UHGV virus genome: UHGV-0259576
Origin: a virus
DNA length: 59,361 nucleotides
Direction: 5' to 3' (one strand)
Shown here: in pieces, positions 5,186 through 58,822 of the stretch
Layout of the letters: every line of letters begins with the position of its first letter
How positions within the stretch are numbered: the stretch's first letter is position 1
The notes under the pieces: model-generated
Told to the model about the DNA's origin: nothing
What the model saw: the letters and a program-made list of their open reading frames with translations, nothing else
Databases searched by the model: none
Translations under genes and position numbers: made by a program

Positions 5186-7777
5186 TTACACCTCGTCATC
5201 GTCTTCATAATCGAACGGATTTTTCGCTTTTCCGATCTTGTTTTCGACGATCTGGTTATGGTCTTTTAGCGTCTTAACGGCCCAAACGGTGTTCAGTTTT
5301 CCGTTCTCTCTTTTGGCCGCTCTAACGTTTCTTCTGGTGAAGCACCGGCCGGTAACGCCATCGATTTTTAGCAGTCCACCCGGCTCAAAACCGAGGTCCA
5401 GGAGAAGGTTTTTTAGTCTGTTCGTCTTCGGCATTTCGACGTCCGGCATCTCCATAAAAGCGTCCTTTAAAGCGGGCGAGAAAATAATGTCTTTGCACAC
5501 GCCTAGTGTCTCGTTCTCCCTGATCATGGTGGCTAACATCTCGCCGACGCCATCGCTGGAAGCCTCCATCATTACCTGGAAAGCACGGGTGTCCTGCGGG
5601 GCATGGCCCTTATGGTTGAAGTCCGGGGAGATCTCCCATTCTAGGAACCATTTCTTAATGGCAGGACCGTGATTTTCGATAGCCCGATAAACGTTAGAGA
5701 AGAACTTCTCGCGTTCCTTAGCCGAACCGTAAACGCGGTCCATGTCCATGTGGTTTTCGGCCTGCGTGGAGACGACCAGGTAGCGGCGCTGGTTCTCGTC
5801 CAGCGGCAGCGCGTTGATGTGGTTGGTGAACATCAATTTCGAGCTGGTATTCACCACGTCACGCGGCTTGACGCCTTTCCCTTCCACCTGGAAGCGGTCG
5901 TTCGAGATAAATTCCTTCTGCTTATCGACGGCGCTGTACCGATCGCCTTTGTCATACACCTCTTCCACGATTTTCAGGATGTGGCCTTCCGCCCAGTCGG
6001 TGAAACGGCCATTCATGACGGAGTTAGAGACGTATCCGATGTTCTGCGCCCCCAGCATTTCGCGCATAAGCACCCCGATCGTGGATTTACCCGAACCGTG
6101 CGCCCCGCGGATGAGCAGCGAATAGTTGATGCGCTTTGTCGGGTGCTGGACGATGTGCGCCAGCCAGTCCATGACGTACGTCCGCTCTTTCGTGTCAGGG
6201 AACAGCACGATAAATAGGTCTTTGACGATAGAAATGGCTTTTTTGTCCAGTTTTGACAGCTTTTCTGCTGCTTTTGGGATGCTTTCAGGCGAAAACGTGT
6301 TCAAACGTAGCAATCCGGAGTCGTCATAGAAGAATTCCGGCCCTAAAAGACCTTCTTTTTGCGTCCATTTCGTCTCCTGCATACCGCCATGCATCTCCGG
6401 ATAGTACATAACGTCGTGAATAATCGGGATTTTTACGACGTCCGTGGCGAACTTATTCGGCGATAAACCGCCTTCCACGTCGCCGATATCACGCCCATGG
6501 GACGAATCAAACGCGCTTTTTGACAGTAAAATCCCGGTTTTACGGCTAACAAAGGCGTCCTGGGCCTGGGCAAAGACGTATTCTTTCAGCCAATTCGGGG
6601 TATCCGCACGGGAAAAGTCGAAACTGAGGTACTCTTTAACGGCTTTGTTAGTCAGCGCGCTTTCGTTCAGGCGTTTGTAGGCTTTCTTGGCCGCGTCAAT
6701 AGTCGGCTGGCGCTCAATGCCGAAAACCCGCAGCTTACGGAAGTCGTCTGCCCAGGCTTTCCAGTCCGCCATGGTGGTGACTTCGTTGAATGCCTCGGTG
6801 AACTCGGAAACCTGTTCCCGGGCTTCCTTCTCTTCGATTTCGTGGACCGTTTTGATGATGGTGCCGATTGTAACCAGCGTCTGGGCATCATGGGTAAAGC
6901 CTTTTTCCCACTTGTACTCGAATTCTGACTCGTCATAGTTATCCGCCTGCATGGACCAGTCGCGGGCGATCTCTTTCGCTTCATCCTGGTCACGGCATGA
7001 CACCTGCAGCGCGGCCATTACCCGGATCCAGTTTTCATAGTTCTCCGGGTCAGGGTATTTCATGACGATATCGCGCAGCTCGTCGTAGGTGCCGTCCCAC
7101 TTGGTGACGGTGGCCATTGCCGCCCAGTCGTCATCGTCCGCTTCGCCTTCCGCCGCCCGTCCGTTAATGGCCCGTGCGACTTTCATCCATCCCTGTTTTT
7201 CGGCATAGGCGTCGAACGCGTCGGCGATATCGCGGGCGATCTCCAGCGTGATTTCAGGCAGGTCCATGGCGGCCGCGCAGTTCACCGGGGTATCATCGGT
7301 GATCCAGGTGTATTCCTTGCGCGTATCCGGGTGGATACCGAAGGCGACGAACTGCTGGCCATCACCCAGGATTTCGACTGCATGGCGCTGTCCGAAGTCA
7401 TCTTCCCAGGTGGCGGACTTGACCTTTTTGAACGGCTCGTCGGTATGGCAAAGCACCAGTTTTTTCGGTTGACGGCCAACACGAACCGGGCCGGCGCCGA
7501 TTTTCTTTTCGACAACGGCCATCATGTGCTTAACCCCGTCTTTGTCGTAGACGTCAATGTCTACCGCGGGGGTGTGCTTGGTCAGGATGCCGATGCCAGA
7601 TGACGCGTATTTCTTCACGAAACCGTTAATCTGGCCACGGGTGTTCTCGATTTTCTGCCAGTCTTCGAACGCAGGCCGTTTTCCTGCTTTTGGCCTGGGC
7701 GAGTCAGGCGGAATGATGGGAACGACGGTGAAGCCGTTTTCCCACAGCGCTATTCCGTATTCGTTCCAGTAGTTCAT
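5186..7777 (-). CDS. bifunctional primase-polymerase (prim-pol N-domain) fused to D5-like SF3 helicase (863 aa); C-terminal acidic tail ...YEDDDEV
   Basis: N-terminal prim-pol signature (VVPIIP...KRPAFEDW...AVDIDVYD...GIHPDTRKEYTW). Walker A GAHGSGKST in the C-terminal half. No competing ORFs over its length. Confidence 0.85.
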   Translation of the reverse strand: MNYWNEYGIALWENGFTVVPIIPPDSPRPKAGKRPAFEDWQKIENTRGQINGFVKKYASSGIGILTKHTPAVDIDVYDKDGVKHMMAVVEKKIGAGPVRVGRQPKKLVLCHTDEPFKKVKSATWEDDFGQRHAVEILGDGQQFVAFGIHPDTRKEYTWITDDTPVNCAAAMDLPEITLEIARDIADAFDAYAEKQGWMKVARAINGRAAEGEADDDDWAAMATVTKWDGTYDELRDIVMKYPDPENYENWIRVMAALQVSCRDQDEAKEIARDWSMQADNYDESEFEYKWEKGFTHDAQTLVTIGTIIKTVHEIEEKEAREQVSEFTEAFNEVTTMADWKAWADDFRKLRVFGIERQPTIDAAKKAYKRLNESALTNKAVKEYLSFDFSRADTPNWLKEYVFAQAQDAFVSRKTGILLSKSAFDSSHGRDIGDVEGGLSPNKFATDVVKIPIIHDVMYYPEMHGGMQETKWTQKEGLLGPEFFYDDSGLLRLNTFSPESIPKAAEKLSKLDKKAISIVKDLFIVLFPDTKERTYVMDWLAHIVQHPTKRINYSLLIRGAHGSGKSTIGVLMREMLGAQNIGYVSNSVMNGRFTDWAEGHILKIVEEVYDKGDRYSAVDKQKEFISNDRFQVEGKGVKPRDVVNTSSKLMFTNHINALPLDENQRRYLVVSTQAENHMDMDRVYGSAKEREKFFSNVYRAIENHGPAIKKWFLEWEISPDFNHKGHAPQDTRAFQVMMEASSDGVGEMLATMIRENETLGVCKDIIFSPALKDAFMEMPDVEMPKTNRLKNLLLDLGFEPGGLLKIDGVTGRCFTRRNVRAAKRENGKLNTVWAVKTLKDHNQIVENKIGKAKNPFDYEDDDEV

Positions 7778-8055
7778 TCAAGAATTTCCCCTGTATCCGG
7801 GTCGATTTTTATCCAGTCCGGGTTAGTGAACCAATGTGGTCGGATGCCAGAAGTTTTAGCGGCCTCACAAATTTTGACGGCCATCTGCCCGGAAACGGTG
7901 TTGCGGATATTCCAGATCATAGTGTCGTAATTTACGCCGGCCGCCTTCGCCAGTTTGGTAAGGTTGCCGTCCGGATCTACCTCCAGGGCAGCGATACCAG
8001 CGAGGTAACGCGGTCTTAGGGAGTGGTCTTTAATAGCCCACGGTGGGAATTTCAT
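7774..8055 (-). CDS. Cro/YdaS-like HTH transcriptional regulator (93 aa)
   Basis: ATG with GAGGA SD. HTH-like segment LTKLAKAAGVNYDTMIWNIRN. First gene of the leftward unit from the divergent control region. The TTG-extended ORF (to 8226) was rejected. Confidence 0.5.
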   Translation of the reverse strand: MKFPPWAIKDHSLRPRYLAGIAALEVDPDGNLTKLAKAAGVNYDTMIWNIRNTVSGQMAVKICEAAKTSGIRPHWFTNPDWIKIDPDTGEILE

Positions 8056-45818: not shown

Positions 45819-46028
45819 TTATTTCCTCCCCATGGGGCGATGTGAGCCAATTCCTTTCCGGTGGCCGATATGGATCTTCCCGCACAGTTTGCAGTGATAG
45901 GCATCCATCGGCCCGCTGTACCCGTACGTCCGCTGGATATGCCTGATGCCTACCATGGCGGACGGGATGTCCGGATAACGCTGCTTCCCTTCGCATGACT
46001 TCCGGCGCAGTCTGCGCTTACTGGCCAT
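45819..46028 (-). CDS. small zinc-ribbon protein (69 aa)
   Basis: CEGK...HCKLCGK Cys/His arrangement. Basic. Confidence 0.45.
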   Translation of the reverse strand: MASKRRLRRKSCEGKQRYPDIPSAMVGIRHIQRTYGYSGPMDAYHCKLCGKIHIGHRKGIGSHRPMGRK

Positions 46029-46378: not shown

Positions 46379-46381
46379 GGG

Positions 46382-46894
46382 TTAACCCTCGTAGTTAGTG
46401 TTAAAGGTGATGCGTATTACTGACTTAATGCCCAGGTGGTCGGTGATCGCCCGGTAATTCGGCGGCTCGCTCATCATGGCGAATTCTTTTACCGCCATGT
46501 ACCCGGGGCTTAACTGCCGCCACCTGGCCCTCATCCCGGTTTCATAGGCGGAGATGAACACTTTCGCGCTAACGATCTTACGGTCCAGTACAAACCCCCA
46601 TTCCATGAGCAAGGGGTAGCGTGGTGGTGCAGTTTTGGCCGTCGGCTTATCAGCGAATCTACGGCGGCTGCAAGAAACGCCATACGGGGTGCGGAATGTC
46701 CGACAAATTCCGTGATAGCGCCCCAGTTCTTCCAGCCCATAGAAGGTGTTGCAGCTGATATCATATTCGCGTTCGCCGTCCATTAAGGCTGCAACCGCGG
46801 CTTTCAGTTCGTAGTAATACTGGAACCACTGGTGGTGGCGGTTGACCACGTTCGACACGATCTGCTGGTCAATCCGGTGAACAATCTGGCTCAT
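46382..46894 (-). CDS. hypothetical protein (170 aa)
   Basis: First gene after the conserved leftward promoter at 46928-46956. SD GGGAG lies inside a leader hairpin. Confidence 0.55.
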   Translation of the reverse strand: MSQIVHRIDQQIVSNVVNRHHQWFQYYYELKAAVAALMDGEREYDISCNTFYGLEELGRYHGICRTFRTPYGVSCSRRRFADKPTAKTAPPRYPLLMEWGFVLDRKIVSAKVFISAYETGMRARWRQLSPGYMAVKEFAMMSEPPNYRAITDHLGIKSVIRITFNTNYEG

Positions 46895-46927
46895 AATGAA
46901 AAACTCCCGTCGTTGCCTTCGGGAGTA

Positions 46928-46956
46928 ATATTAGTTGCACACGAATCGTATGTCAA
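46928..46956 (-). promoter_or_regulatory. conserved leftward promoter/operator copy D (minus strand TTGACA-N17-TAATAT, with dyad CATACGATTCGTGTG in the spacer)
   Basis: One of four near-identical ~32-bp elements (others at 49280-49308, 54355-54383 and 58183-58211). Confidence 0.6.
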
Positions 46957-46968
46957 ACGTTTTTTAAG

Positions 46969-47727
46969 TTATTCATGCTCGGGTTTCAGCCGCGGGAATC
47001 GCTCCAGCCAGCCATGATCGATAATCACCATGTACGCCTGGCGGTAGGCATCCCGTATGGCAGTGTGTTGCGCTAACGGGCAGCGTACTTCCGCCTGTGC
47101 GTCAGCGAGTTCCCACAAGCCGCCTTCTCCCGGTCTGAGACGGCTCCAGCGCTTCATGAGGGTACGGGTGTCGTTCTCCTGACGGAAATTCCATGGCCCT
47201 TTACCTTCACCGCCGAACAGAACGTTTTCCAATTGGATAATATCTACGCGCGGTGCATGCCCCCAGACCTGCAGGTCCAGTTCTGCGAAATAATCTGGGC
47301 GGCCATGCTGCTTTAACTTGGTATCCCGGACGAAGTTCATTTCCTCCGGCCTTACTTCAACATAATCGCGAAGGGTTTCGTTCAGCCAGTTCCCGAACTG
47401 GAATGCGGCGGCGTCAATCGACCACGTATCGTCATCTGACCGAGTGAAGTTGAACGTTTCCATTGCGGCTTCCGGGTTTTGCAGCGCCTGCATGATCCAC
47501 CATTTAACGGTGTCCGGATCGATATGGCCGTTCGGCTTCCCGCGTTCCTGTTTAAGCGAAAAGCTGACATCTTCCATCCAGCCTTCGTCCGCGTGGAACA
47601 TGACGCACGCAAATGACAGCAGGTGGCCGTTGGTCATGCATGACAGGTTTTCCACGTCGAATACGAGGTGGATTTTGCCGATATGTTCTGGTTTTGCTTT
47701 CATAGGTGTTCCCCTTCTTTGGTCCAT
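46969..47727 (-). CDS. DnaQ-like (DEDDh) 3'-5' exonuclease (252 aa)
   Basis: Exo I HLVFDVE. Exo III H-x4-D (HTAIRDAY). N-terminal extension. Confidence 0.65.
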   Translation of the reverse strand: MDQRRGTPMKAKPEHIGKIHLVFDVENLSCMTNGHLLSFACVMFHADEGWMEDVSFSLKQERGKPNGHIDPDTVKWWIMQALQNPEAAMETFNFTRSDDDTWSIDAAAFQFGNWLNETLRDYVEVRPEEMNFVRDTKLKQHGRPDYFAELDLQVWGHAPRVDIIQLENVLFGGEGKGPWNFRQENDTRTLMKRWSRLRPGEGGLWELADAQAEVRCPLAQHTAIRDAYRQAYMVIIDHGWLERFPRLKPEHE

Positions 47728-48020
47728 TCTCCGCTGCCGTCGGCGCGGGTCACTTTAATAATTTCGTCTTTTTCCACGTGCATCACCGGCAGCGGTGGAA
47801 ACGCTACGGTACCGTCGGTGTGGCATACCCGCACTTCCACCCGCCATGGCTTCCAGAAAATCGGGATACCATCGCAATGTCCGAGGACGATGCCGGAGTA
47901 TTCCCGACCGTTGTATTTGTCACGAAAGCGGATCATATCCCCATAGAGCGGGTAATCAGGGTCCGGTGGCATCGCTGCGTATTTCTCCGCGATACTCCGG
48001 GCTACGTCGAACATTGACAT
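47700..48020 (-). CDS. hypothetical protein (106 aa)
   Basis: ORF with overlapping start/stop with neighbours. Confidence 0.5.
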   Translation of the reverse strand: MSMFDVARSIAEKYAAMPPDPDYPLYGDMIRFRDKYNGREYSGIVLGHCDGIPIFWKPWRVEVRVCHTDGTVAFPPLPVMHVEKDEIIKVTRADGSGEWTKEGEHL

Positions 48021-48134
48021 GTTAATCTCCCATAAATGGTTCGCAGCTGGCCGCGCATCCTTTCAGGATCCGGTATGTCATGTAAGCGGAGGTACGACCC
48101 CCGCTGAACAGCACCAGTAAGCGCGGCTTTGCCT

Positions 48135-49244
48135 TTAGAGGTCGATCTCGTCAGGGTCATCGGCACGGCCATACATCTCTTCGAACAGGATCATAGCTGC
48201 GGCGTACACCAGCGTCCCGCGAAGTTCGTTGATCCGGGCCTGTTTAGTCGGCAGCGACCGGGCCTCAATGGTTTTCTTGATAACCTGCTGCGCCAGGCCG
48301 GCGTCGCTGTCCAGCATCTGCGCCATGGTCAGGATCGGCTGCTCGATGAACGGCAGGTCATTGGCATGACGCTCACGGCCTTTACCGTACGCCGCCTGTT
48401 CCAGCGCGCCGAGGAAGGTGCGCAGCAACGGCAGATAGTCATCCCGGTCTTTCTTGTTTTTGAAACGGAACATTACCGACGGGAAGCCGGACTCATCGGC
48501 TTCCATCGTCAATTCGTATTGCTGCTGTTTAGCCGCCTTAACGCCGTACGGCGCGGCCATAGCGGGCGACGTACCGACTTTACGACCCTCCCACGCGAAG
48601 GCCGCCGGTTGGTTATTCGCTTTTATCATCTTCGCGATGTTTTCCATGGCATCCTGGGCCGTACCTCCGGTGATCCTGACTTCGGTTACGGCATCCCAGC
48701 AGCGCTTAACGAGAAAATGGACGGTGGAGATAATCGTATCTGCCGGGGCATCCGGGTCGAGTTTTAATTCTTTCGCGACCGCCTCAATCGTTTTTTCCTG
48801 TTCGACGGCCTGCGCCTTCACCGCACCTACCATGGCCAGCATTTCGTCCCAGCTGCGGCCGGTGACGCCCATCGCTTTCGCCAGCTGGTCACGCATTTGC
48901 GAATCAATGCTGACCAGTTCGTCAGTGGACGGGTTACGCAGCGAAAGGAGTTTATGCCCGTTGAGATGCGCGAACATGAGATAGTTCATCGCGTCGATCA
49001 GCTTACCTTTAGCCAGCGAATCGCGAATGCAGGTGCGGCATTCATGCTCGGTCAGTTCTTTCCACGGTTCGGCTGTCGCCCAGTCTTTACGTTTTTTAGC
49101 GCCGTGGTAAAGGCGCGATAACATTTCATCGAAGACGACGTTTACGGTACGAAGGAATTCCAGGGAAAGGTAGCCCCCAATATTGCCTTCAACACTTTCG
49201 ACGGTGAGGCGCACGGCAGGCACAGTGGTATTAAGATTTGACAT
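48135..49244 (-). CDS. hypothetical protein (369 aa)
   Basis: CGGAGA SD. First gene after conserved promoter copy C. Confidence 0.6.
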   Translation of the reverse strand: MSNLNTTVPAVRLTVESVEGNIGGYLSLEFLRTVNVVFDEMLSRLYHGAKKRKDWATAEPWKELTEHECRTCIRDSLAKGKLIDAMNYLMFAHLNGHKLLSLRNPSTDELVSIDSQMRDQLAKAMGVTGRSWDEMLAMVGAVKAQAVEQEKTIEAVAKELKLDPDAPADTIISTVHFLVKRCWDAVTEVRITGGTAQDAMENIAKMIKANNQPAAFAWEGRKVGTSPAMAAPYGVKAAKQQQYELTMEADESGFPSVMFRFKNKKDRDDYLPLLRTFLGALEQAAYGKGRERHANDLPFIEQPILTMAQMLDSDAGLAQQVIKKTIEARSLPTKQARINELRGTLVYAAAMILFEEMYGRADDPDEIDL

Positions 49245-49279
49245 GGTATATCTCCGGGTTGTTTTGTTGTTCGATTAGA

Positions 49280-49308
49280 ATACTAGCTGCACACGTTCTG
49301 TGTGTCAA
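49280..49308 (-). promoter_or_regulatory. conserved leftward promoter/operator copy C (TTGACA-N17-TAGTAT; dyad CACACAGAACGTGTG)
   Basis: Same ~32-bp element. Overlaps the stop of the C5-MTase gene. Confidence 0.6.
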
Positions 49309-50489
49309 ACGTTTTCCAGAAAATCTACAGTTCCCACCATAAAGTTTCGGATGAACTGGGCGGCGACTTGCGGGACGATGGCGTTTCCGTATCCGCGCAG
49401 TCGCACCACTCGGGCGGGTACCCCATTAGCCAGCGGGAATGTGCCGGATTCAACGGGCCGGAAATTTCCATCCCTGCATAGCAGCCAGTCAGCATTTGAC
49501 CATGCGCCGTGATCCTGATCGGGAAGTCCGGAACAGGCGTACACTTCTCCATACCCTTCCTGTAACTCCCCGATAGCTGCCCCCTCGATGCCGGCGAGTC
49601 CGGTACCGTCAGCGGTGTCGGGTAGCTGGCGAGACGAACAGCGCCGCCCAGGGTCGTCGACCGATCCGGATGGCCCGCTGCGCCCGCCTCCCCGCGTACC
49701 TGATTGTTGTCGATCGTCGTCACCGTTGGCCATCCCGCCATCCCCGCGATGTCCTGCAGGCGGATATGCTTCTTCGTCCCGTCCTCCCGGAACCATCCCG
49801 CCCGCGCGTAGTCCGGACATGGGCTGCGGTCGTTGCAGGTGTTCGGCGTTGGGTAGGTCGCCAGCTGCGCCGCCACGTCCAGCCGGTCGACGGATAGTTT
49901 GCCATTCCTTATCCGCCCACCCGCGTAGCCGCCTTTCCAGTCCGTCGCTGACGAGGTCGGCCAGGTCGATAGCGCCAAAGAAAAGGCGATCTCTTTTGTG
50001 CGGGGCGCCGACGCTGCACGCTGGCAATACTGCCGATGCGCAGGCGTAGCCTTCGTCTTCCAGCTCAACGAATAGAGCATCGAGCCACAGTTCTTTAATT
50101 GCTGCGCTAACCTGTTCGCCAAAAATAGCTGGAGGTCGCAGCTCTGCGATGAGGTCGAGAAAGGCCGGAGCCAGGTGACGGGAGTCGTCCCGCCCGCCTC
50201 GTTTTCCAGCCACACTAAAAGGCTGGCACGGCGGACTTCCCGTACACACTGGCGCATCTGCCGGCCATCCGGCGAGTTTAAGGGCCAGCGGCCAGCCCCC
50301 GATCCCGGCGAAGAAATGGTGTTGGGTGAAGCCTTTGAGGTCTTCCGGTGCGACTTCTGTGATTGATCGTTCATCGACAATTCCATCTGGCAGGTGGCCG
50401 CGCCTGATTAGTTCACGAAGCCACGCTGCGGTTTTTGGGTCCCACTCGTTAAAATAGTGGAACGGTTTAGAGCCGTTTATGTATGCCAT
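49305..50489 (-). pseudogene. DNA (cytosine-5)-methyltransferase gene read across two frames (two compensating frameshifts: pseudogene, sequencing error, or recoding)
   Basis: Frame A (49305..50489) carries motifs [26 protein letters not shown] and [13 protein letters not shown], then G/R-rich junk, and ends with motif [14 protein letters not shown]. The overlapping frame B ORF (49325..50386) carries the TRD-like WPT(P/S)...D and YPTP repeats and motif IX-like [10 protein letters not shown]. Shifts map near 49977-49985 (AAAGAAAAG tract) and 49388-49405. Confidence 0.6.
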
Positions 50490-50634
50490 TCTGCGCCTTT
50501 TCCGCGCGTTGCTTGAACACGCATTCGACATGGATGGTTCGCCATGACCCGGCATAGCGTTCGTAATGGCCGGCGCCGGCCGGCACATGCTTTTTGCAGT
50601 AGTAGCAGACGCCCGCGTATTTATTTCTGGCCAT
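50467..50634 (-). CDS. small Cys/His-containing protein (55 aa)
   Basis: ATG with GAGGG SD. CYYCKK...H...ECV. Only the last 55 codons of the 160-aa ORF-track entry look real. Confidence 0.35.
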   Translation of the reverse strand: MARNKYAGVCYYCKKHVPAGAGHYERYAGSWRTIHVECVFKQRAEKAQNGIHKRL

Positions 50635-51013
50635 CTTTGACCCTCGCGAAACAGGCATACGGCCCATCGAATTCCGTCGGCGCCGTATACAGGAGAAACC
50701 AGCCGGACCCGTTAAGCGATGTCGGGCGAGGCATCCAGGTACGCAGCACGGAGGCACGCATATCGTCCGTCTTTGCGTTGTCGTACGCCACCCGCAGCGG
50801 CACTTCCAGCGCTCGCGGATAGCCTTCGCCCAGGTAGAAGCCCTCGCACTCCAGGTGGTATGCGTCCAGCAGCGCGTCGAGATTGGACCCATCGTAGTTA
50901 TTACTGGCGTGGAAGAAGACGGGGTGGTGGTACCAGGCGTCCGGGTCATACCCGTCCGCCAGGCTTACCTGCTCGCCAATTACGCCATCGTTATACACGT
51001 TTGGCTTTGGCAT
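50621..51013 (-). CDS. hypothetical protein (130 aa)
   Basis: ATG with GAGGAAGGAAAGA SD. The upstream extension in the ORF track is out-of-frame junk. Confidence 0.5.
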   Translation of the reverse strand: MPKPNVYNDGVIGEQVSLADGYDPDAWYHHPVFFHASNNYDGSNLDALLDAYHLECEGFYLGEGYPRALEVPLRVAYDNAKTDDMRASVLRTWMPRPTSLNGSGWFLLYTAPTEFDGPYACFARVKDGQK

Positions 51014-51254
51014 TCTTTCCTTCCTCTTCGGCGACTGACCAGACGACCTCGGTGAACGGGTCAGGATTGATTTTCTTTCCGACCTTATTCTGGTCGAGGT
51101 ACCAGTCGTCGCCGCACCACAGCTTGACGCCGTGGGCGTCACGGCGGACTTCCACGTCGAACGTTTTCACCTCGGTGATCTTGCCGTTACGGGTTACAGT
51201 TTTGGTTAATTTCATGGTCTTGGCCTCACGTTTATGAACACGAACATCTTTCAT
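50991..51254 (-). CDS. hypothetical Lys-rich protein (87 aa)
   Basis: ATG with GAGG SD. ATGA overlap with the Dam stop. Confidence 0.5.
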   Translation of the reverse strand: MKDVRVHKREAKTMKLTKTVTRNGKITEVKTFDVEVRRDAHGVKLWCGDDWYLDQNKVGKKINPDPFTEVVWSVAEEEGKNAKAKRV

Positions 51255-51255
51255 C

Positions 51256-51969
51256 TCATACCTCGTCCCACTGGGCGATCCACTTCTCGCGGATGTCCTG
51301 CATGATGTTGGCCATGGGCAGTCCGATGTCCATGAGCGCTTCCCGGGAGATGTACTCCGGGGCATGTTTTTCTTCGTCTTCCGGGTCGAAGATGACTATC
51401 GCGGCGCCGAAGCCCGCGGACGTGGCGCCAGCGGCATCCTTCTTCGCTTTGAACCATACCGGCGGTTCGAAACCGATGCGCCCTTTGATGAATATGGTGC
51501 GCGTGGCGATGGTATCGGGCCACCATGTTTCAGCCGTTGCCGCTTTGATCACCCAGACCGTACCCGCGCCTTTCTTCCGTTCCTCTTCCGCCTTGGCCAT
51601 GATGTTGACCATGCCGGTTAGCGGCACTTCCACAGCACGGTTACGGCTGTATGGCGGGTTGCCGAAACCCCATACCCGCCGAACGTGGTCGGCGACATCG
51701 TACACTTCCGCCTCGGCCTCCAGTTCCGCCTGTATCCTTTTCAGCCGGCCCGCCCAGTCCTGGCGCAGCGCGTTGTCCTCGGCAGTGTAATAGCGCGGGC
51801 ATTTGGCGTTCTGGCCATCGGTGAACAGGTCCAGCACCAGCGGGCCGAACAGCTTGTCCAGCGCAAAGAACAGCCAGTCCGGTGTCCGCCACTGGTCGCC
51901 TATCTCTTTCAGGTCATGCGCTTCCCGGGCTTTCAGCGCGATGAGGTTGTCAACGTATTCAGAACTCAA
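51256..51969 (-). CDS. phage-type DNA N6-adenine methyltransferase (Dam family) (237 aa)
   Basis: DQWRTPDWLF near the N-terminus, LDLFTDGQNA, DWAGR, catalytic motif IV WGFGNPPYS, GRIGFEP. This is the phage Dam (pfam05869-like) pattern. Confidence 0.85.
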   Translation of the reverse strand: MSSEYVDNLIALKAREAHDLKEIGDQWRTPDWLFFALDKLFGPLVLDLFTDGQNAKCPRYYTAEDNALRQDWAGRLKRIQAELEAEAEVYDVADHVRRVWGFGNPPYSRNRAVEVPLTGMVNIMAKAEEERKKGAGTVWVIKAATAETWWPDTIATRTIFIKGRIGFEPPVWFKAKKDAAGATSAGFGAAIVIFDPEDEEKHAPEYISREALMDIGLPMANIMQDIREKWIAQWDEV

Positions 51970-52294
51970 CTTGATGCCTCCATGTGATGATTTCGTTCTC
52001 CTGGGTGGTAGCAGTTACGAGGATGAAGCCGCTGTCAGCGTCCATCCGTTTAGTTTCGACAAAACCCGGGAGCGCTTTGAAAAACCCATCCACGTCCAGG
52101 TGGTTGAAAGCGCCAATGGAGACGCTGCATTCCATATTTTTATCGCCGCCGGCCATGTGGCTTACGGAACGAAGACTGGTACCGGTATGTTCCCGGAACC
52201 AGCGGTCAACGGACCGCAGGAATACCCCGTAATGCTCGGTGAGGGTATCGCACATAACTACGACATTTGTAACTCTACTCATGGTCATCACCAT
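51959..52294 (-). CDS. hypothetical protein (111 aa; start uncertain)
   Basis: ORF overlapping both neighbours. No clear SD. Confidence 0.4.
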   Translation of the reverse strand: MVMTMSRVTNVVVMCDTLTEHYGVFLRSVDRWFREHTGTSLRSVSHMAGGDKNMECSVSIGAFNHLDVDGFFKALPGFVETKRMDADSGFILVTATTQENEIITWRHQVEF

Positions 52295-52685
52295 TTAGTA
52301 TTTTCAGGACTGACTCACGGTTCGCCCGCAAGACGGCCATGATTGTCTTTGCATAGCTGGACTCGCCGTCATGCGATTGGCTGAACGTACGCCGAAAAGT
52401 TTCTTCCCGTACTAAGATCCGTTTGTGTTCAGGCGCGGAGGCACCGGCATACGCGCGGGATACCGGAACGATGTGTAATTCAATAGACACAAAATACTGG
52501 CCCAGCTCATTACGGTTGCAGAGTAGCTTGGTCGAATGTACGTGGTCTTCCGGACTTCCGTCGAAAAGCCCCTTCCTCACGTTCAGGTAACTTGTGATAT
52601 TAAAGGCATCCGGTATAACGCCGGCTTTCATAATATCCACACAGATTTCCCGAAGGGTATTTGGATCTGTGATGTACTTTATCAT
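52275..52685 (-). CDS. hypothetical protein (136 aa)
   Basis: ORF within the tightly packed leftward unit. Confidence 0.5.
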   Translation of the reverse strand: MIKYITDPNTLREICVDIMKAGVIPDAFNITSYLNVRKGLFDGSPEDHVHSTKLLCNRNELGQYFVSIELHIVPVSRAYAGASAPEHKRILVREETFRRTFSQSHDGESSYAKTIMAVLRANRESVLKILNGDDHE

Positions 52686-53164
52686 TTCCGTTTTTCCTTC
52701 TGTCGTGACACGAACTGGACCGGGGTGACGACCTCACCGAAATTCGGGTAACAGCTGCGCACCAGCTCCAGGGTCAGTGGGTTGATCTCCGCACGCGGCG
52801 TCTTCACGTCGTACGCGCGGTCCGGGATGTCGATGCGGCGCATGTACGTCGGTCGCATCCCGACGCGTACGGCGTAGTTATACGCTTCCTTCGGGCCGTT
52901 CGCCCAGACCACGAAGCCGACCCCGCGGCGCTGCAGATAATATGCCTGCGCCGTATTGGAGTCATCGCGAGGCAGATTTTGTGGTATCGCAGGAAAACGG
53001 GCGCTACTTCCTTTCACGGTTCCGGTATACCAATTGGTCGAAGCATGGCGTTCTTCCGAACACTCCGGCGGGTACGGGTCATTGATATCCCACGTCTTTC
53101 CGCACCAAGAACAGAACACCTGGTCCGATTGCTGGATAGCGTTTTTGTGGCCGTTAGTTTCCAT
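52682..53164 (-). CDS. hypothetical protein with N-terminal CxxC (160 aa)
   Basis: CSWCGK...PPEC. Basic C-terminus. Confidence 0.5.
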   Translation of the reverse strand: METNGHKNAIQQSDQVFCSWCGKTWDINDPYPPECSEERHASTNWYTGTVKGSSARFPAIPQNLPRDDSNTAQAYYLQRRGVGFVVWANGPKEAYNYAVRVGMRPTYMRRIDIPDRAYDVKTPRAEINPLTLELVRSCYPNFGEVVTPVQFVSRQKEKRK

Positions 53165-53561
53165 CGGTGTCCTCCATCATCCACGATGGCCATACGCCAT
53201 CGCGGATCATCTGGCGCTGGGCCTTCCAGTCAGCCTGCGCGAGTTCTTTAACCCGGGTCCGGATGACAGCGTCAGGCATAAACGCCGTCATTACTTTCGT
53301 CAGGAAAACTTTGTTGTAGGGGTCTTCCACGCGGCGGTTTAACGCCTGCGCGCAGGACTGGATCGCCGCCTTGTCATTGCCGTGTTCTTTCATGCACAGC
53401 ATGAGCGTAACGATCATGTCTATCGCCTCGGCGATATCCCGGCACGCTTTCTTTTCTGGCCCATGGACCTCAATGGAAATGCTGGTCGCCGGGAATAACA
53501 GGTGGTCTTTGTACGGGCGCAGCCAGTCCGCTTTTGCCCGGTCTTCTGCGCTGGTGGTCAT
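53154..53561 (-). CDS. hypothetical helical protein (135 aa)
   Basis: ATG with GGGAAGAGGA SD. The longer ORF-track start was rejected. Confidence 0.5.
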   Translation of the reverse strand: MTTSAEDRAKADWLRPYKDHLLFPATSISIEVHGPEKKACRDIAEAIDMIVTLMLCMKEHGNDKAAIQSCAQALNRRVEDPYNKVFLTKVMTAFMPDAVIRTRVKELAQADWKAQRQMIRDGVWPSWMMEDTDGN

Positions 53562-54325
53562 ACTTCGATGTCCTCTTCCCGGATAAGCTGCAGGGCGTTG
53601 CCGTTCACCGCCCACGGTTGCCACACGTCCACCACCAGCGCCGCACGGAATGACCGGTTGAAGCAGTTCTCGATCATCGCCCAGTTATCGTCCGGACGGT
53701 CTGACGCGATGCCATTGCGCTCCCAGTGCCACTGGCGTGGCGCCTGGGCCAGCTCGCGGAGGGGCGGGCGTGGGTGTGAGTAGGGGTTGCACAGGCCGGA
53801 ACGCAGCAGGCCGCGCTGGAGCCATGAGCGCTGCCACCAGAGGTCACAGCGGGTCGACCCGACGGCGTATTCCTCTTCCAGCATGACGCACATGATCAGC
53901 GCGCACACAGTATCGCGTGGCGCCGGCGCGCCGATGAGGTCGAAATCCTCCAGCCTCTTCGCCAGGCGGTCGGCGGACCCTTCGTCCTGCCCGTTGCCGT
54001 CGGTACGGTCATGCAGAATTACATCGAGGATGATGGCCGGAAAGACGACCTGTTTGCCGTTGCGGGTGAAGCGGGGGTCAGGCTCATTGAAGAGGGCGTG
54101 ATACAGCCGCCCGAACCACTCCGACAGGTCAGGCACGAAGTCGGCGATATCCGGCCAGCTGCGTTCCTCTGTGTTGTGGATGCGCACGGACGTCTCTTCC
54201 TCTATCGGGTCATACTCGACGCGGACGATGCAGCGCGGGCCGTGCGGGAGGGGGAAAATGTAGATGGTCTGTTTGCCGATTCGATTCTGGTCAAAGCGGC
54301 CAAACGACATTAAGTGCTTCTTCAT
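53558..54325 (-). CDS. hypothetical protein (255 aa); C-terminus ...IREEDIEV
   Basis: ATG with AAAAAGGAA SD directly downstream of conserved promoter copy B. The ORF-track TTG start was rejected. Confidence 0.55.
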   Translation of the reverse strand: MKKHLMSFGRFDQNRIGKQTIYIFPLPHGPRCIVRVEYDPIEEETSVRIHNTEERSWPDIADFVPDLSEWFGRLYHALFNEPDPRFTRNGKQVVFPAIILDVILHDRTDGNGQDEGSADRLAKRLEDFDLIGAPAPRDTVCALIMCVMLEEEYAVGSTRCDLWWQRSWLQRGLLRSGLCNPYSHPRPPLRELAQAPRQWHWERNGIASDRPDDNWAMIENCFNRSFRAALVVDVWQPWAVNGNALQLIREEDIEV

Positions 54326-54354
54326 GGGATGTTCCTTTTTGTGGACTCCCAAGA

Positions 54355-54383
54355 AATGTAGCTGAACACGATTCGTGTGTCAA
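54355..54383 (-). promoter_or_regulatory. conserved leftward promoter/operator copy B (TTGACA-N17-TACATT; dyad CACACGAATCGTGTT)
   Basis: Same ~32-bp element. Preceded on its upstream side by a strong terminator. Confidence 0.6.
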
Positions 54384-54396
54384 ACGCTTTCTGCAG

Positions 54397-54430
54397 GCAA
54401 AAAAGAAGCCCGGACAAAGCGTGCCGGGCT
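54397..54430 (-). terminator. rho-independent terminator (minus strand) separating leftward units A and B
   Basis: Minus strand reads AGCCCGG-cacgctttgt-CCGGGCT followed by TCTTTTTT. Confidence 0.65.
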
Positions 54431-54481
54431 TTAATGTCAGTGGAACACCGAGCATGAAGATTTCATCCCATGTCCCGATCA

Positions 54482-54754
54482 CTATACGTCAGGATTGCGA
54501 TAAATCAAATCCCAGTAGATGAATGTTTCCAGGTCGACTTCCGTCCAGTCCGGGTCATCCCGGAACGACAGGCAGGTGCCGGCATCCTCCGCGCAGACCT
54601 GCCCGGCGGCCGCGTTATGCAGCAGGCGGACTTCCCGGAAATAGATGAACCACTCGCGGCATGGCGTATAGGACTCGGGCTGACGGGTCTTGATGATCTG
54701 GCCCGTCTTTTTGTCCTGCCAGTACGCCGTCCGTTTCTTCGCCAGGTAGCCCAT
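54482..54754 (-). CDS. hypothetical protein (90 aa)
   Basis: Last ORF of leftward unit A. Confidence 0.5.
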   Translation of the reverse strand: MGYLAKKRTAYWQDKKTGQIIKTRQPESYTPCREWFIYFREVRLLHNAAAGQVCAEDAGTCLSFRDDPDWTEVDLETFIYWDLIYRNPDV

Positions 54755-54755
54755 A

Positions 54756-54983
54756 TCAGCCCACCCTCATGACGCGGGATCCCATGCGGCCGTAAATCGG
54801 GTCGCGCAGCACCCAGCGGATAGCCAGCTTATATCCCAACTGGTACCCCAGGCGCCGCACGTAGCCCAGGTCCGCAGGCCGCTTGCCGCTCACGAAGAAG
54901 GACTCGCCGACAGCCATAGCGCCAAGCAGGCGTTTATGCTCGGCGATATGGGGATTCGGTTTAGCGTGTTTACGGCCTGCCAT
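54756..54983 (-). CDS. small basic protein (75 aa), possible DNA-binding
   Basis: ATG with GACGAGGTG SD. Basic, helix-prone. Confidence 0.45.
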   Translation of the reverse strand: MAGRKHAKPNPHIAEHKRLLGAMAVGESFFVSGKRPADLGYVRRLGYQLGYKLAIRWVLRDPIYGRMGSRVMRVG

Positions 54984-54984
54984 G

Positions 54985-56076
54985 TCACACCTCGTCGTCG
55001 TCTTCCAGCTGCGCGTCGACCTCAACCGTGATGTCCATCTTATCGCGGAAGACGTCAATGACGTCCTGCAGCGACAGCACCGTCTGGAACAGGTTGGCCA
55101 TGTAGGTCAGGAACGTACCGCTGTCATTGTTGTAGCGCTCCAGGGTGGCCTCGTAATTGGCGTCAACGTCAGCCTCGCCGATATGGATCCCGGAGATGAT
55201 CGCCTTGTCGGTCAGGCGGAAGAACACGTTGCCCACGCCCGGGCGCATCTCGCCTTCGTCGATTCGCATGTTCAGCGCCCGAACCGTGTAATGCCGCGCC
55301 AGGTAGTCGAGGACCACTTCGTCCTTGTGGATGTCAATGTCCTTGAACTTCACGTCATCGCCATCGTCGTGCTTGATGTGGATGAAGTCGTCGCCGGTGA
55401 CACCCTCGATGTCGCCGCGTACGACCTTCTCCATTGACTGACGCAGCACGAAGTCATTGATCAGCAGGTGTTCCACTGGCCAGGTACCGAACGCGGCACG
55501 CAGCAGGGAGTTAATCTCTTCGGCGGTCTTGGCGCTGGTGGTGAACACGTAGACGTACGGGACGGCGATGATCACGTTGTAGCGGGTTGGGCGGATAGGC
55601 GCGGTTTTCAGCATTTCGGCTTCAACATCGTCTTTCAGCTGCGCCCAGTCTTTCCGGGTCGGCTCCCAGCCTTCAATCTCTTTCTCGCGCCAGGTGTCCA
55701 TACGCTTCGTCACTTCGTTGCGCACGCTGACGCCGGGCAGCACGCGTTCACGCTTTTCGGCCTGCAGCACGATCGCGTTGGTACCGGGGATGCCCATGGC
55801 GAACTTGCCGCCCACGTAGTCCGCGTACGGCGCAAAGCCAATCGTCTTATAGCCGATCGGGTCTTTCACTTCGTGCTTCGCCAGCAGGTCGCTCACACGG
55901 CCGGCGGCGAATTCATGGACCGACATTTCATCCAGATTCGGCGTGTTCAGCAGCGTGCGGTGGAAACTTTTTACCGACTTCTCGCCAGCGTTTGCGGCGC
56001 CAAAGAGCGCGCCGAGATGCAGAATGATGACTTTCTCAAAGCCTTTAACTTTCATTGGGGTTATCTCCGTTTGCAA
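54985..56076 (-). CDS. rdgC: RdgC-like recombination-associated protein (363 aa); C-terminus ...LEDDDEV
   Basis: By-eye similarity to E. coli RdgC over its length (e.g. ...IVLQAEKRERVLPGVSVRNEV vs ...[21 protein letters not shown]). Size fits. Confidence 0.55.
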   Translation of the reverse strand: MQTEITPMKVKGFEKVIILHLGALFGAANAGEKSVKSFHRTLLNTPNLDEMSVHEFAAGRVSDLLAKHEVKDPIGYKTIGFAPYADYVGGKFAMGIPGTNAIVLQAEKRERVLPGVSVRNEVTKRMDTWREKEIEGWEPTRKDWAQLKDDVEAEMLKTAPIRPTRYNVIIAVPYVYVFTTSAKTAEEINSLLRAAFGTWPVEHLLINDFVLRQSMEKVVRGDIEGVTGDDFIHIKHDDGDDVKFKDIDIHKDEVVLDYLARHYTVRALNMRIDEGEMRPGVGNVFFRLTDKAIISGIHIGEADVDANYEATLERYNNDSGTFLTYMANLFQTVLSLQDVIDVFRDKMDITVEVDAQLEDDDEV

Positions 56077-56377
56077 ACAGATTCAGGAATGGCGCACGCA
56101 CAAGAGCGGCGGTTAGATGGGCCAGCAGCACACGGTTCGTCTCCCGGGCGCTACGCAGGTCTGCCGCCATTTCGGCGTACTCTTTATCGACTTTGACAAA
56201 GGCGCCTTCGTCAGCGTTAGGGTCGATCACCGTGTTGCCGAGGACTTCGGTATACACCCGGGTAGCTTCATCCTCGATGTCGGCAATAATGCTGTTCAGG
56301 ATAGCGATCTTACTGCGTACCTGGTCGAGCCGGTCGGCTCGGGTCTTCGCGTACGCCTGCAGTAATTCGGTATTCAT
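56045..56377 (-). CDS. hypothetical protein (110 aa)
   Basis: ORF overlapping its neighbours. Confidence 0.5.
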   Translation of the reverse strand: MNTELLQAYAKTRADRLDQVRSKIAILNSIIADIEDEATRVYTEVLGNTVIDPNADEGAFVKVDKEYAEMAADLRSARETNRVLLAHLTAALVRAPFLNLFANGDNPNES

Positions 56378-56688
56378 CCGCGTGCTCTCTTTTCGTTACG
56401 GCGGCGCTGGCGGTCTTCCTTACGCTTCTCCACCTGTGCATTCCAGCGGTCGCGTTCCTCTGCCTCCGCCCAGTGTTTACGCCAGCGTTCTTCCCGTTCG
56501 CCAAGCGCTTTACTGACCGCACCGTCGATAACTTCCATGGCCCGGACCAGCTCGTCTTCCGTCATCTCGGCAGCGGAGCACTTCCCGATCTCCGTCTGCA
56601 GCAAACGGACAACGGCAGAGATGCCGATCGCGTCGATGGCGATACGCGCCTTTTGCGCATACAGTAGTCTTTGGTTAACCTGCATCAT
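56374..56688 (-). CDS. hypothetical protein with highly charged C-terminus (104 aa)
   Basis: ORF with ATGA overlap to the next gene. Confidence 0.5.
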   Translation of the reverse strand: MMQVNQRLLYAQKARIAIDAIGISAVVRLLQTEIGKCSAAEMTEDELVRAMEVIDGAVSKALGEREERWRKHWAEAEERDRWNAQVEKRKEDRQRRRNEKRARG

Positions 56689-56921
56689 TTCGCCCCCGTT
56701 GTCAGGACGACATAAAGGACCGCCACGCAGGCGACCAGCTCGATCAGTACCATGAACAGGATGGACGCCAGCAGCAGTTTCGCAAATGACGGCAGGTACG
56801 GCGTCAGGCGTATGCGAGCATGACCGTCAAGCGCTTTATGCTTCATTGGACGTCGATTGCGTTTGGTCCAGCGGCGCGCCCAGTTTTCTCCGCGGCGGCG
56901 GGATAAGCTATCAAGCGACAT
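56685..56921 (-). CDS. small membrane protein (78 aa)
   Basis: C-terminal TM segments LLLASILFMVLIELVACVAVLYVVL. Confidence 0.45.
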   Translation of the reverse strand: MSLDSLSRRRGENWARRWTKRNRRPMKHKALDGHARIRLTPYLPSFAKLLLASILFMVLIELVACVAVLYVVLTTGAK

Positions 56922-56933
56922 GGGGTTTCCTTC

Positions 56934-57278
56934 TTAGTGTTTTTCGCCAGCAATGTCAGCCAGTACGGCTGCGACTTCCGGCGTGGGCATGTGGGTATTG
57001 GCCCAGTACAGCAGCCCGATGATGTAGTGGATCATCTGGCCGACCTCTGCGGCGCCGCGCGCTTTTCCGCCTTTGGCTTTCGCATAATCGCCTTCGCTGA
57101 ACAGCACTTTGCCGGTACCGCGGTAGCCAACAATGGCCGAACCGGTATGCGTGACATAGATGGCCACCGCATATTTGTCTTCCAGGGAGCGGAACGCCGG
57201 GCCAGCGTCGAGTCGTTTGCGCGGCGCCGCAACGCGGTTCACCGCCAGCGCGACATTACTCGGTGTCGGGTTTTCCAT
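56934..57278 (-). CDS. hypothetical protein (114 aa)
   Basis: ORF. GAGAGG-type SD upstream. Confidence 0.5.
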   Translation of the reverse strand: MENPTPSNVALAVNRVAAPRKRLDAGPAFRSLEDKYAVAIYVTHTGSAIVGYRGTGKVLFSEGDYAKAKGGKARGAAEVGQMIHYIIGLLYWANTHMPTPEVAAVLADIAGEKH

Positions 57279-57705
57279 TGAGAGGCTCTCCGTTCAGGGT
57301 GTAGATGACGACGCCCGGCACGCTGACGTCGATCGACAGCGATGGCACAAAGCCGGACATAACGTTCTGCGGGGTGATGGTGGCGCGTTTCAGGCCGTTC
57401 TCGTACATGATGTTCGCGATGCCTGCCATGACGGACTTCTCCATGAGGTTCAGGGTCGTCTCTTCGCGCATCTCCAGTAGCAGTTCCAGTTCGGCGGCGC
57501 GGTCAGGGATATCGAACGCCCGCTGCAGCGCAGCAATCAGCACAATGGCGTCATCACGGGTAAGGCGGCTGATAGCGTCAATATCGCCATTCGGGCTTTC
57601 GACCCTGATGGACCCGCGCTGTTCATCGTAGCCATACTGACGGGAAACCGTGGCTTCACGGCCATCGCTAAGGTCAAGTTCTTCGAATGCTTCTGCTGTG
57701 GTCAT
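57256..57705 (-). CDS. hypothetical protein (149 aa)
   Basis: ORF. GGAGACACC-ATG. Confidence 0.5.
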   Translation of the reverse strand: MTTAEAFEELDLSDGREATVSRQYGYDEQRGSIRVESPNGDIDAISRLTRDDAIVLIAALQRAFDIPDRAAELELLLEMREETTLNLMEKSVMAGIANIMYENGLKRATITPQNVMSGFVPSLSIDVSVPGVVIYTLNGEPLNGKPDTE

Positions 57706-57764
57706 GTGGTGTCTCCGGGGGAAAAGGGTGGTACGGCAAAAAAGAGGTGCCGCGTCCTACAGGA

Positions 57765-58142
57765 TTAAACTTCGTCGTCTTCCTGGGTGCCGGCGCCATC
57801 ATCAACGCGCTTGATCGCCACCTGGATAAACGCACGGCCCGACGGGTACATGACCAGCGCCGTTTCCAGTGAGAACTGACTATTGCAGGCCCGTTTGGCG
57901 TTACGCAGGGAAGACGACACGCCGTTACGCATTTTGTAGCGCAGCGCCGTGGCTTCGGTCTGCAGGTCCGCCAGCGCCTTGCTGCTGTCCAGCTCCTGCG
58001 CATAAACGTAGACCTCGCCAGGCTTGAGGCCGATCAGGTTGCCAGTGATACTGTTAGCCCGGATACCTGACGGCAGTTCCACGTCCGTCTCCATGGTCAT
58101 CATGGCCGGCGTCAGGTCATCCAGGATAATCGCGTCGTTCAT
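57765..58142 (-). CDS. hypothetical protein (125 aa); C-terminus ...QEDDEV
   Basis: First gene after conserved promoter copy A. GGAGAATACCG-ATG. Confidence 0.55.
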   Translation of the reverse strand: MNDAIILDDLTPAMMTMETDVELPSGIRANSITGNLIGLKPGEVYVYAQELDSSKALADLQTEATALRYKMRNGVSSSLRNAKRACNSQFSLETALVMYPSGRAFIQVAIKRVDDGAGTQEDDEV

Positions 58143-58182
58143 CGGTATTCTCCGTCGTTAAATTTGCGTATCTGTCACGCTG

Positions 58183-58211
58183 AAAGATAGTTGCATACGT
58201 TCCGTGTGTCA
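58183..58211 (-). promoter_or_regulatory. conserved leftward promoter/operator copy A (TTGACA-N17-TATCTT; dyad CACACGGAACGTATG)
   Basis: Same ~32-bp element as at 46928, 49280 and 54355. Confidence 0.55.
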
Positions 58212-58224
58212 ATCGTTTTCACTG

Positions 58225-58500
58225 AACGACAACCTGCCAGCTTTTTCAAGTAAGAAATTTCAGCCGGCTAACTTTTTGAAGTAAGACCCGAACCGTTATG
58301 GCGCCGGCCATGGTTATTATGGGATGGCCACCGTGGCGCCGCAGGAATTTTACCTCGAGGATTGCCGGGCATGGCCACCGGTCAGGCCCATGGCGCCGAC
58401 CTGGCTGGCGCGGCCCGCCGCCGGGTTTCAGCCTGCCAGCTTTTTCAAGTAAGCGCGCACCGCTAAAAATTTTCAGCCCGCTAGGTTTGCCAAGTAAGGA
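58225..58500. repeat. repeat-rich non-coding region: two copies of a ~60-bp unit (CCTGCCAGCTTTTTCAAGTAAG ... AAATTTTCAGCC(G/C)GCTA ... TTGAAG/CCAAGTAAG) flanking a ~150-bp GC-rich inverted-repeat island
   Basis: 17-mer CAGCTTTTTCAAGTAAG at 58236 and 58436. Related 12-mers (TTGAAGTAAGAC at 58277-58288, TGCCAAGTAAGG at 58487-58498). GGCGCCGGCCATGG / CCATGGCGCCGACC inverted repeats and ATGGCCACCG direct repeats in the core 58290-58440. Confidence 0.6.
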
Positions 58501-58798: not shown

Positions 58799-58822
58799 GA
58801 AACAACATAAACGAGGTACACA

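Follow-up and report, generated by a model that had tools for sequence, protein, structure and literature searches.

We analyzed the virus genome UHGV-0259576, a stretch of 59,361 nucleotides (nt) here referred to as the window, and found that six of its predicted promoters, four leftward and two rightward, carry the same short dyad within their spacers. The dyad is kept in other genera of the same phage family and also occurs in copies without a promoter beside the cohesive-end (cos) site. Its anatomy, its enrichment over chance, and its conservation make it probable that it serves as an operator at which a single repressor, encoded by the phage, controls all the early and accessory operons. 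The window is the whole genome of a Klebsiella phage, with 92-94% identity over long stretches to the Klebsiella phages of the genus Yonseivirus, and the circle closes in frame, since the gene starting at 59094 runs on at position 1. Judged from its sequence, the phage is a virulent Chi-like siphovirus of the family Casjensviridae, genus Yonseivirus, with a complete, circularly permuted genome. This phage group has been described as virulent (PMC4342425), and the open reading frame (ORF) map, the relatives' annotations, and domain scans of the window hold no integrase and no CI.

Six promoters with a common spacer dyad

An original prediction, made from the letters of the window, had described four minus-strand elements of the form TTGACA-N17-TAnnnT that share their spacer, and all four are real. 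Promoter A (46928-46956) reads TTGACA TACGATTCGTGTGCAAC TAATAT, with the dyad core at 46939-46951, and precedes a unit that extends from an ATG at 46894 down to about 43761. Promoter B (49280-49308; TTGACA CACAGAACGTGTGCAGC TAGTAT) has one mismatch in its core at 49291-49303 and precedes the unit 49244 to 46969. Promoter C (54355-54383; TTGACA CACGAATCGTGTTCAGC TACATT; core at 54366-54378) is followed by the unit 54325 to 49325, which includes Dam-like and C5 methyltransferase genes. The first leftward promoter, D, reads TTGACA CACGGAACGTATGCAAC TATCTT, with its core at 58195-58207; it lies at 58184-58212, so that its end had been placed one nucleotide short, and its unit (58142 to 54482) includes an RdgC-like gene. 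Start codons had been expected 20 to 60 nt downstream of the four elements and are found 29-41 nt on, each with a GGAG- or AGGA-like Shine-Dalgarno sequence.

Two plus-strand elements, E and F, emerged as the best further matches of a weight matrix built from A-D. Both read TTGCAC-N17-TATGTT. E (58740-58768), the first rightward promoter, contains a 19-bp dyad at 58741-58759 and is followed by an ATG at 58823, and its unit crosses the end of the window into 1-2301; F (2389-2417) contains the near-perfect 19-bp palindrome TGCACTCGTTACGTGTGCA at 2390-2408 and is followed by the unit 2465 to 4036. The gene next to E is the first of a rightward block of small genes and that next to F a later one; both promoters lie within one 104-nt direct repeat (2344-2447 and 58695-58798) whose copies are 92% identical. 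All six spacers are 17 bp long. The hexamers match the σ70 consensus at 10 of 12 positions in A-D, which are the sole sites of this quality in a σ70 scan of 44000-59361, and at 8 of 12 in E and F. By sequence, then, A-F are promoters of the host RNA polymerase (σ70) for two divergent sets of early and accessory operons, four leftward and two rightward. Between the A-D set and the E/F pair, the -35, the -10, and the flanks all differ, and the dyad alone is held in common. The rightward replication operon has a promoter with a perfect -35 (TTGACA-N17-CATACT at 8209-8237, plus strand) whose spacer is unrelated and contains no dyad, showing that consensus promoters in this genome do not need one.

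The conserved core of the dyad is 13 bp, RYACG-N3-CGTRY, and lies inside the spacer, abutting the -35; the dyad as a whole spans roughly -31 to -13 of the promoter. The symmetry that had been noted in the spacer is thus present, but it is imperfect in A-D, with 5 to 7 of the 7 symmetric pairs formed per copy. The full operator form in Yonseivirus is TGCACACG-N3-CGTGTGCA, and in A-D the outer left arm is altered to GACACACG, which gives the consensus TTGACA. Base 6 of the -35 is where the core begins in A-D and in every copy from Chivirus, Redjac, and JC01 (see below); in E and F it begins at base 5. A dyad of about 13-19 bp with preserved arms, a free center, and a fixed register inside the promoter has the anatomy of an operator. 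Among 25 distinct dyads, position 2 holds 11 complementary pairs, 9 T.G, and 5 C.A; the arms vary independently, which argues for a degenerate protein half-site rather than for base pairing.

These sites are far more frequent than chance would predict. The pattern TTGACANACNNNNCGTNTNCANCTA has four matches in the window against a mean of 0.13 in 100 dinucleotide-preserving shuffles, none of which reached four, and the 15-mer CACACGNNNCGTGTG with at most one mismatch has six (shuffle mean, 0.23; maximum, 2). A 19-mer consensus, derived partly from E and F themselves, matches eight times with at most three mismatches, against 0.33 expected. Among the direct repeats of the whole window, A-D also make up the largest family (40 nt, 75-80% identity).

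Conservation across Casjensviridae and copies beside cos

All dyad sites are retained in close relatives of the window phage. The absence of the elements from related phages had been named as a reason to abandon the original prediction; that objection fails, as they occur in four other genera. SPN19 (Chivirus) has six dyad promoters of the form TTGAC-RYACG-N3-CGTRY, four pointing toward its accessory block and two toward its small-gene block; the core RYACG-N3-CGTRY is found in at least five promoters of Redjac (Redjacvirus) and in at least three of the partial Enc34 locus, and JC01 (Jacunavirus) has four with ACAC-N5-GTGT, the inner G/C pair being replaced. The intergenic DNA of these four phages can no longer be aligned with that of the window. 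When the sites are aligned on the -35, conservation is confined to four features: the arms of the dyad, the -35, the -10, and an AAA tract upstream. The three central bases vary, as do the flanks and the remainder of the spacer.

The dyad is missing entirely from JS26, a Serratia phage of the genus Dunedinvirus, and from N133, a temperate Klebsiella phage (Seodaemunguvirus) with the same host species as the window phage; we found zero dyad promoters in either. The JS26 promoters at 6411(-), 3072(-), 7064(+), 16713(+), and 20828(+) have conserved spacers of their own: the two early ones read TTGCAT-CCGnCnCATATTCGG-TATATT, and dyads of the form ACTCG-TCG-CGAGT or ACATGC-N5-GCnTGT are found in the middle ones. 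JS26 thus seems to follow the same plan with operator-regulator pairs of its own. In a scan of IMG/VR, a 14-base pattern, TTGACANACGNNNCGTGT, gave mostly chance hits among the matches listed, and these were discarded; four contigs in which the 25-mer pattern is present have no similarity to the window and were taken as chance or unrelated. Phages of this family are in development against Klebsiella and Salmonella, and their transcription control is undescribed in the literature that we searched; in the publications on Casjensviridae, Chivirus, Yonseivirus, Chi, and JS26 we found no description of these promoters or of the dyad.

The dyad is not confined to promoters. The cohesive end of phage Chi has been determined as GGTGCGCAGAGC (PMC4342425), and the window contains a 12-mer one base off this sequence, GGTGCGCAGCGC, at 4616-4627 on the plus strand, which is the probable cos site; the records of several relatives begin at 4616-4697. 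Three further dyads, at 4245-4263, 4313-4331, and 4362-4380, lie between cos and the terminator that ends the rightward early operon (4061-4089, plus strand), with no -10 at a usable distance from any of them. The middle copy is perfect in phage KPN N137 (ACACG-GGG-CGTGT). The four genomes that were read end to end, one per genus, all have three to four promoter-less copies of the genus's own version of the dyad, located between the small-gene block and the cos end. In SPN19, the copies at 252, 322, 373, and 432 all read GCACG-NNN-(C/T)GTATATCA, which is the E/F operator of that phage without its -35; Redjac has copies at 29632, 29714, and 29811; and JC01 has three ACACT-TCG-GATGT-type sites about 300-400 bp off cos. 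Within each lineage, the promoter copies and the cos copies of the dyad change their sequence together. These promoter-less copies indicate that the dyad is a functional unit in its own right, separable from promoter activity. The cos-side copies would bind the regulator too, where they may act as a decoy or timer, a roadblock, a looping partner, or in an end-related function. This cos-adjacent cluster, found in four genomes of four genera, is the sole feature of the system that goes beyond standard models.

One more dyad-like sequence, TTGCACACGCCTAGTGTCTC (ACACG-CCT-AGTGT, one mismatch), lies at 5494-5512 on the plus strand, within the primase gene but on its opposite strand, with no -10. 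It is kept in relatives, which coding constraint alone may explain.

A candidate regulator and its mode of action

A single regulator gating the leftward units, as was first proposed, is still the most economical reading, and the set of sites that it would govern is wider by E, F, and the three copies beside cos. Of the three candidates put forward, only a Cro/YdaS-like product of 7774..8055 gains support, from its fold and its distribution. This gene (7777-8055, minus strand), the first of the primase operon, encodes a protein of 93 amino acids that is annotated as a "transcriptional regulator" in some relatives and is predicted to adopt a lambda-repressor/XRE-like helix-turn-helix (HTH) fold. 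The best AlphaFold model has a predicted local distance difference test (pLDDT) score of 92 and places the HTH at residues 32-51, LTKLAKAAGVNYDTMIWNIR; at the beginning of its second helix, Y43 and T45 do not vary between genera. The JC01 homologue is most divergent at this point, and the JC01 operator also lacks the inner CG. By tblastn, homologues were found in Yonseivirus, Chivirus (52% identity), Enc34, Redjac and Providencia phages, and JC01 (34%), that is, in all five dyad-bearing genera, and in neither JS26 nor N133; neither N133 nor Dunedinvirus has a record among the tblastn matches listed, and 142 phage records have a match to the protein. At the corresponding position, JS26 encodes an unrelated protein of 86 amino acids that gives no alignment. 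A search of a large protein database returned only close, unnamed relatives, a PDB sequence search returned only spurious matches to repeat proteins, and BLASTP against lambda Cro returned nothing. Taken together, the modeled fold and the co-occurrence with the dyad make the 93-amino-acid protein the most likely candidate for the regulator. Its own promoter, TTTACT-N17-TAATAT as read by eye, has no dyad. The leader of the gene (8056-8100, minus strand) contains ACACGCACACACACGCGAGGA right before the start codon, and SPN19 (ACACGCACACATGCGAGGG) and Redjac (ACACGCGCACATGCGAGGT) have comparable leaders; this sequence, which holds an ACACG half-site and a Shine-Dalgarno sequence, may be an autoregulatory or a translational element.

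The other proteins considered fared less well. Among about 45 early and accessory proteins, Pfam and PHROGs recognized only domains of unknown function (DUFs), Dam, an exoribonuclease, and a deoxyribosyltransferase, and no DNA-binding family. A basic protein of 75 amino acids (54756..54983), also named by the original prediction, has a confident model that contains no HTH and whose alpha/beta fold resembles methyltransferase fragments, R3H, and L17, and for the third protein named there, a Zn-ribbon-like product of 69 amino acids (45819..46028), we found no supporting evidence. A protein of 70 amino acids (2089-2301, plus strand), annotated as a "putative DNA binding protein" in relatives, reads as two long hydrophobic helices and looks like a small membrane protein, and a protein of 90 amino acids (54482-54754) has only a PDW..D.ET motif in common with the candidate, making it an unconvincing paralogue. 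Neither gp1 of Chi, the other HTH protein of that phage, nor gp30 of JS26 has a homologue in the window; the latter is a predicted winged-helix regulator that was essential in a transposon screen (bioRxiv 10.64898/2025.12.19.695335).

Under the repressor reading, one dimeric, sequence-specific DNA-binding protein, most likely phage encoded, would occupy each dyad. Given that the dyad lies at about -31 to -13, the bound protein would exclude RNA polymerase, which makes repression the economical interpretation, and the repressor, once accumulated, would shut off or throttle all six units together. In the genome linearized at cos, about 3.4 kb separate the candidate gene from the left end, and all the dyad promoters lie in the right-hand 18 kb. 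RNA sequencing of JS26 showed that the small-gene block next to cos is expressed early (5 min) and the replication genes middle-late, and its authors proposed that DNA entry begins with the early end (PMC8754663; bioRxiv 10.64898/2025.12.19.695335). Five proteins of the JS26 middle block have homologues in the leftward block of the window. By analogy, transcription would start from E and F and then from A-D, and the repressor, made from the last-entering DNA, would finally close all six; this scheme is borrowed from a distant relative that lacks the dyad. A bolder version, in which the cluster at the cos end, probably the first to enter, and the last-entering regulator gene would let the phage silence its early and accessory operons once DNA entry is complete, or once packaging begins, strikes us as speculative and unlikely to be correct. 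To our knowledge, such a genome-geometry timer has been described for no phage.

Several observations weigh against a repressor of this kind, or against the protein chosen for it. The co-occurrence of dyad and candidate is confounded by phylogeny: no relatives are more distant than JS26 and N133, and further small conserved proteins, DUF7300 and DUF7609, are probably distributed alike. The other four AlphaFold models of the candidate have pLDDT values of about 50, the underlying alignment comprises only 7 sequences, the Foldseek E-values are all >0.1, and the protein has no Pfam match, no PDB sequence match, and no PHROG function. On the DNA side, E and F reach no more than 8 of 12 consensus positions, and the inner positions are degenerate in two of the three cos-proximal copies of the window. 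Finally, the JS26 block that is syntenic with the leftward units belongs to the "middle" class (on at 20 min, not at 5 min; PMC8754663), so that a positive or delaying role of the dyad is conceivable.

A host transcription factor conserved in Enterobacterales could bind the dyad instead and tie early and accessory expression to host physiology. The dyad is indeed common to phages of Klebsiella, Salmonella, Hafnia/Enterobacter, Providencia, and Cronobacter, the phages that bear it are flagellotropic or Chi-like, and such a link through CtrA sites has reportedly been proposed for flagellotropic phages of Alphaproteobacteria (PMC9437464). However, the inner bases of the dyad change with the phage genus (ACACG..CGTGT, GCACG..CGTAT, ACACT..GGTGT), at promoters and cos clusters, which looks like coevolution with a phage-borne protein. 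Moreover, N133 has no copy despite sharing the host species of the window phage, and JS26, whose host is another member of the Enterobacterales, has other spacers. No enterobacterial factor known to us binds an ACAC-N5-GTGT site; NrdR has the box ACAC-N8-GTGT, NtrC the site TGCAC-N7-GTGCA, and FabR the site ACACGTGT. We therefore regard a host factor as unlikely.

It is likewise improbable that a dyad-bound phage protein activates or times the promoters, as a middle-gene activator or antisilencer would. This reading draws on the late onset of the JS26 cluster syntenic with A-D, which contains homologues of Dcm, the RdgC-like and Dam-like proteins, and the deoxyribosyltransferase, and on the modest consensus match of E and F. 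Yet E and F, presumably the earliest promoters, bear the same dyad, and the consensus -35 and optimal 17-bp spacer of A-D should make an activator unnecessary. A site that fills the spacer from -31 to -13 is in the classical position for repression, and activators of the MerR type need spacers of 19-20 bp, longer than any of the six found here. As JS26 lacks the dyad, its timing says little about the role of the dyad, and the delay could come from stepwise DNA entry, as the JS26 authors suggest.

The promoters might also share their spacers with no regulator involved, either because a promoter cassette was duplicated or gene converted or because the spacer merely aids RNA polymerase. E and F are clearly a recent duplication, and the conservation of the hexamers and of an upstream GAAA/AAAA tract is what plain promoter strength predicts. 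Against this, copies within one genome keep the arms while the center and the downstream part of the spacer differ, the arms are also kept between genera whose flanks no longer align, and the perfect -35 of the replication operon does without a dyad. Neither version accounts for the copies beside cos, which have no -35 or -10, and we give this explanation a small chance only.

Those same copies could point to a protein that is primarily a genome-end or packaging factor, such as a small terminase subunit or an end-binding protein, with early silencing as a secondary effect. In the window, SPN19, and JC01, the three to four sites are no more than about 450 bp away from cos, and in Redjac they occupy the matching noncoding region; such a cluster recalls the multiple R sites of lambda cosB. 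By analogy with the lambda gene order, however, it is on the last-packaged, first-injected side of cos, the position of cosQ and not of cosB, in line with the entry order suggested for JS26. Separate iterons, CGTTTGTTACC (4850-5100), occupy the other side of cos, and nothing ties any terminase subunit to the dyad sequence, making a primary packaging role very unlikely. That the dyad acts as a nucleic acid hairpin, either in the processing or stability of read-through transcripts or as extruded DNA, like the hairpins of the early N4 virion-polymerase promoters, which its 5-6-bp arms and 3-nt center resemble in size, is hardly credible, given the uncompensated variation of the arms, the lack of any Rfam match at the gathering threshold in the whole window, the absence of a large virion RNA polymerase gene from the 59-kb ORF map and the relatives' annotations, the position of the element upstream of the start of transcripts from these promoters, and perfect σ70 hexamers that need no hairpin.

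Related systems and genome layout

A phage repressor acting at the dyad would, by analogy, belong to the dispersed-operator systems, with the anatomy of the Cro/434 type and the layout of P1 C1 or stoperators, an ordinary design in principle. With the lambdoid Cro and CI proteins (XRE HTH; 434 operator, ACAA-N6-TTGT; P22 c2), it shares a short dyad with conserved outer arms and a free center that overlaps the core promoter. It differs in having six single operators over about 18 kb, with no CI/Cro pair, no tripartite OR/OL, and neither an integrase nor a lysogeny module. The distance from the candidate gene exceeds 5 kb for all the dyad promoters and is about 9 kb for E along the circle, and none of them transcribes the gene, so the arrangement is not that of a lambdoid immunity region. 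The P1 C1 operators and the stoperators of mycobacteriophages L5 and Bxb1 are dispersed sites, asymmetric in P1 and L5, at which one repressor maintains lysogeny. The likeness here lies in one repressor for many units and in dispersed short sites, some of them away from promoters, whereas the sites in the window phage are dyads and the phage is virulent, so that the role would be a temporal shutoff; no C1 or gp71 homologue was seen in the window phage. The controller proteins C.AhdI, C.BclI, and C.Esp1396I are among the best structural matches of the candidate model, their C-boxes are also small dyads overlapping the -35, and the units regulated here include two DNA methyltransferases; in contrast to C-box systems, the dyads are single and of 13-19 bp, with no double C-box, no restriction endonuclease gene, and no dyad at the regulator's own promoter. 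In the virulent coliphages T7 (A1-A3) and T5, tandem strong early promoters close to the σ70 consensus express the earliest genes from the first-entering end, with shutoff via inhibitors of RNA polymerase. The window phage resembles them in its near-consensus promoters at the end that would enter first, with its leftward series pointing into the genome, but we know of no shared spacer operator in T7 or T5. If correct, our proposal would explain the joint switch-off of about 18 kb of accessory and antidefense-type genes. It would also yield compact, strong, and possibly repressible promoters, as well as promoter-terminator modules, for phage engineering.

Two hairpins accompany the leftward promoters. 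The strong terminator reported with the original prediction is real, an intrinsic terminator at about 54399-54431 on the minus strand (-15.5 kcal/mol, followed by CUUCUUUUUU), but it precedes promoter C, the third copy in the order reported there, and not "copy B"; it closes unit D just upstream of C, and upstream of promoter B there is no terminator. A second hairpin (ACUCCCG..CGGGAGU plus U5; 46898-46926, minus strand; -12.8 kcal/mol, z -4) starts 2 nt past the -10 of promoter A, whose predicted start site coincides with the end of the 5' arm of this hairpin. A transcript from 46921 folds at only -3 kcal/mol, so the hairpin should stop read-through from unit B and spare the transcripts of promoter A. 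Terminator-like hairpins with different stems also occur 2-3 nt past the -10 in SPN19 (after 12492 and 15190) and Redjac (after 17558 and 15089).

In order from cos, the genome contains iterons, the leftward regulator-primase operon (5186-8055), the rightward replication, packaging, virion, and lysis genes, the 14-kb leftward accessory block (58142 down to about 43761), a 680-bp divergent noncoding region, and the rightward small-gene block (4.5 kb, from 58823 across the window end to 4036), which leads to the terminator and back to cos. No tRNA genes were found in the whole window. The iteron sequence CGTTTGTTACC occurs in several copies at 4850-5110 on the plus strand, between cos and the 3' end of the primase gene, three of them in tandem at about 4858-4882, and Chi has GTTACAA-type repeats at the equivalent place; these repeats are candidate origin iterons or cosB-like terminase sites. 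The divergent region between promoters D and E, flanked by DUF7609 and DUF7300 genes, contains four copies of a 25-nt repeat, CAGCCTGCCAGCTTTTTCAAGTAAG, arranged as two pairs at 58230-58498 (plus strand) and 76-100% identical, which may serve as another array of binding sites or act in replication or DNA entry. A conserved aaatCCCTTCGGGG hairpin with a UUCG-type tetraloop, perhaps a 5' stabilizer, opens the leaders of the rightward (early) promoters in Chivirus and Dunedinvirus (SPN19 after 5322(-) and 2545(-); JS26 after 6411(-) and 3072(-)), but the window phage lacks it.

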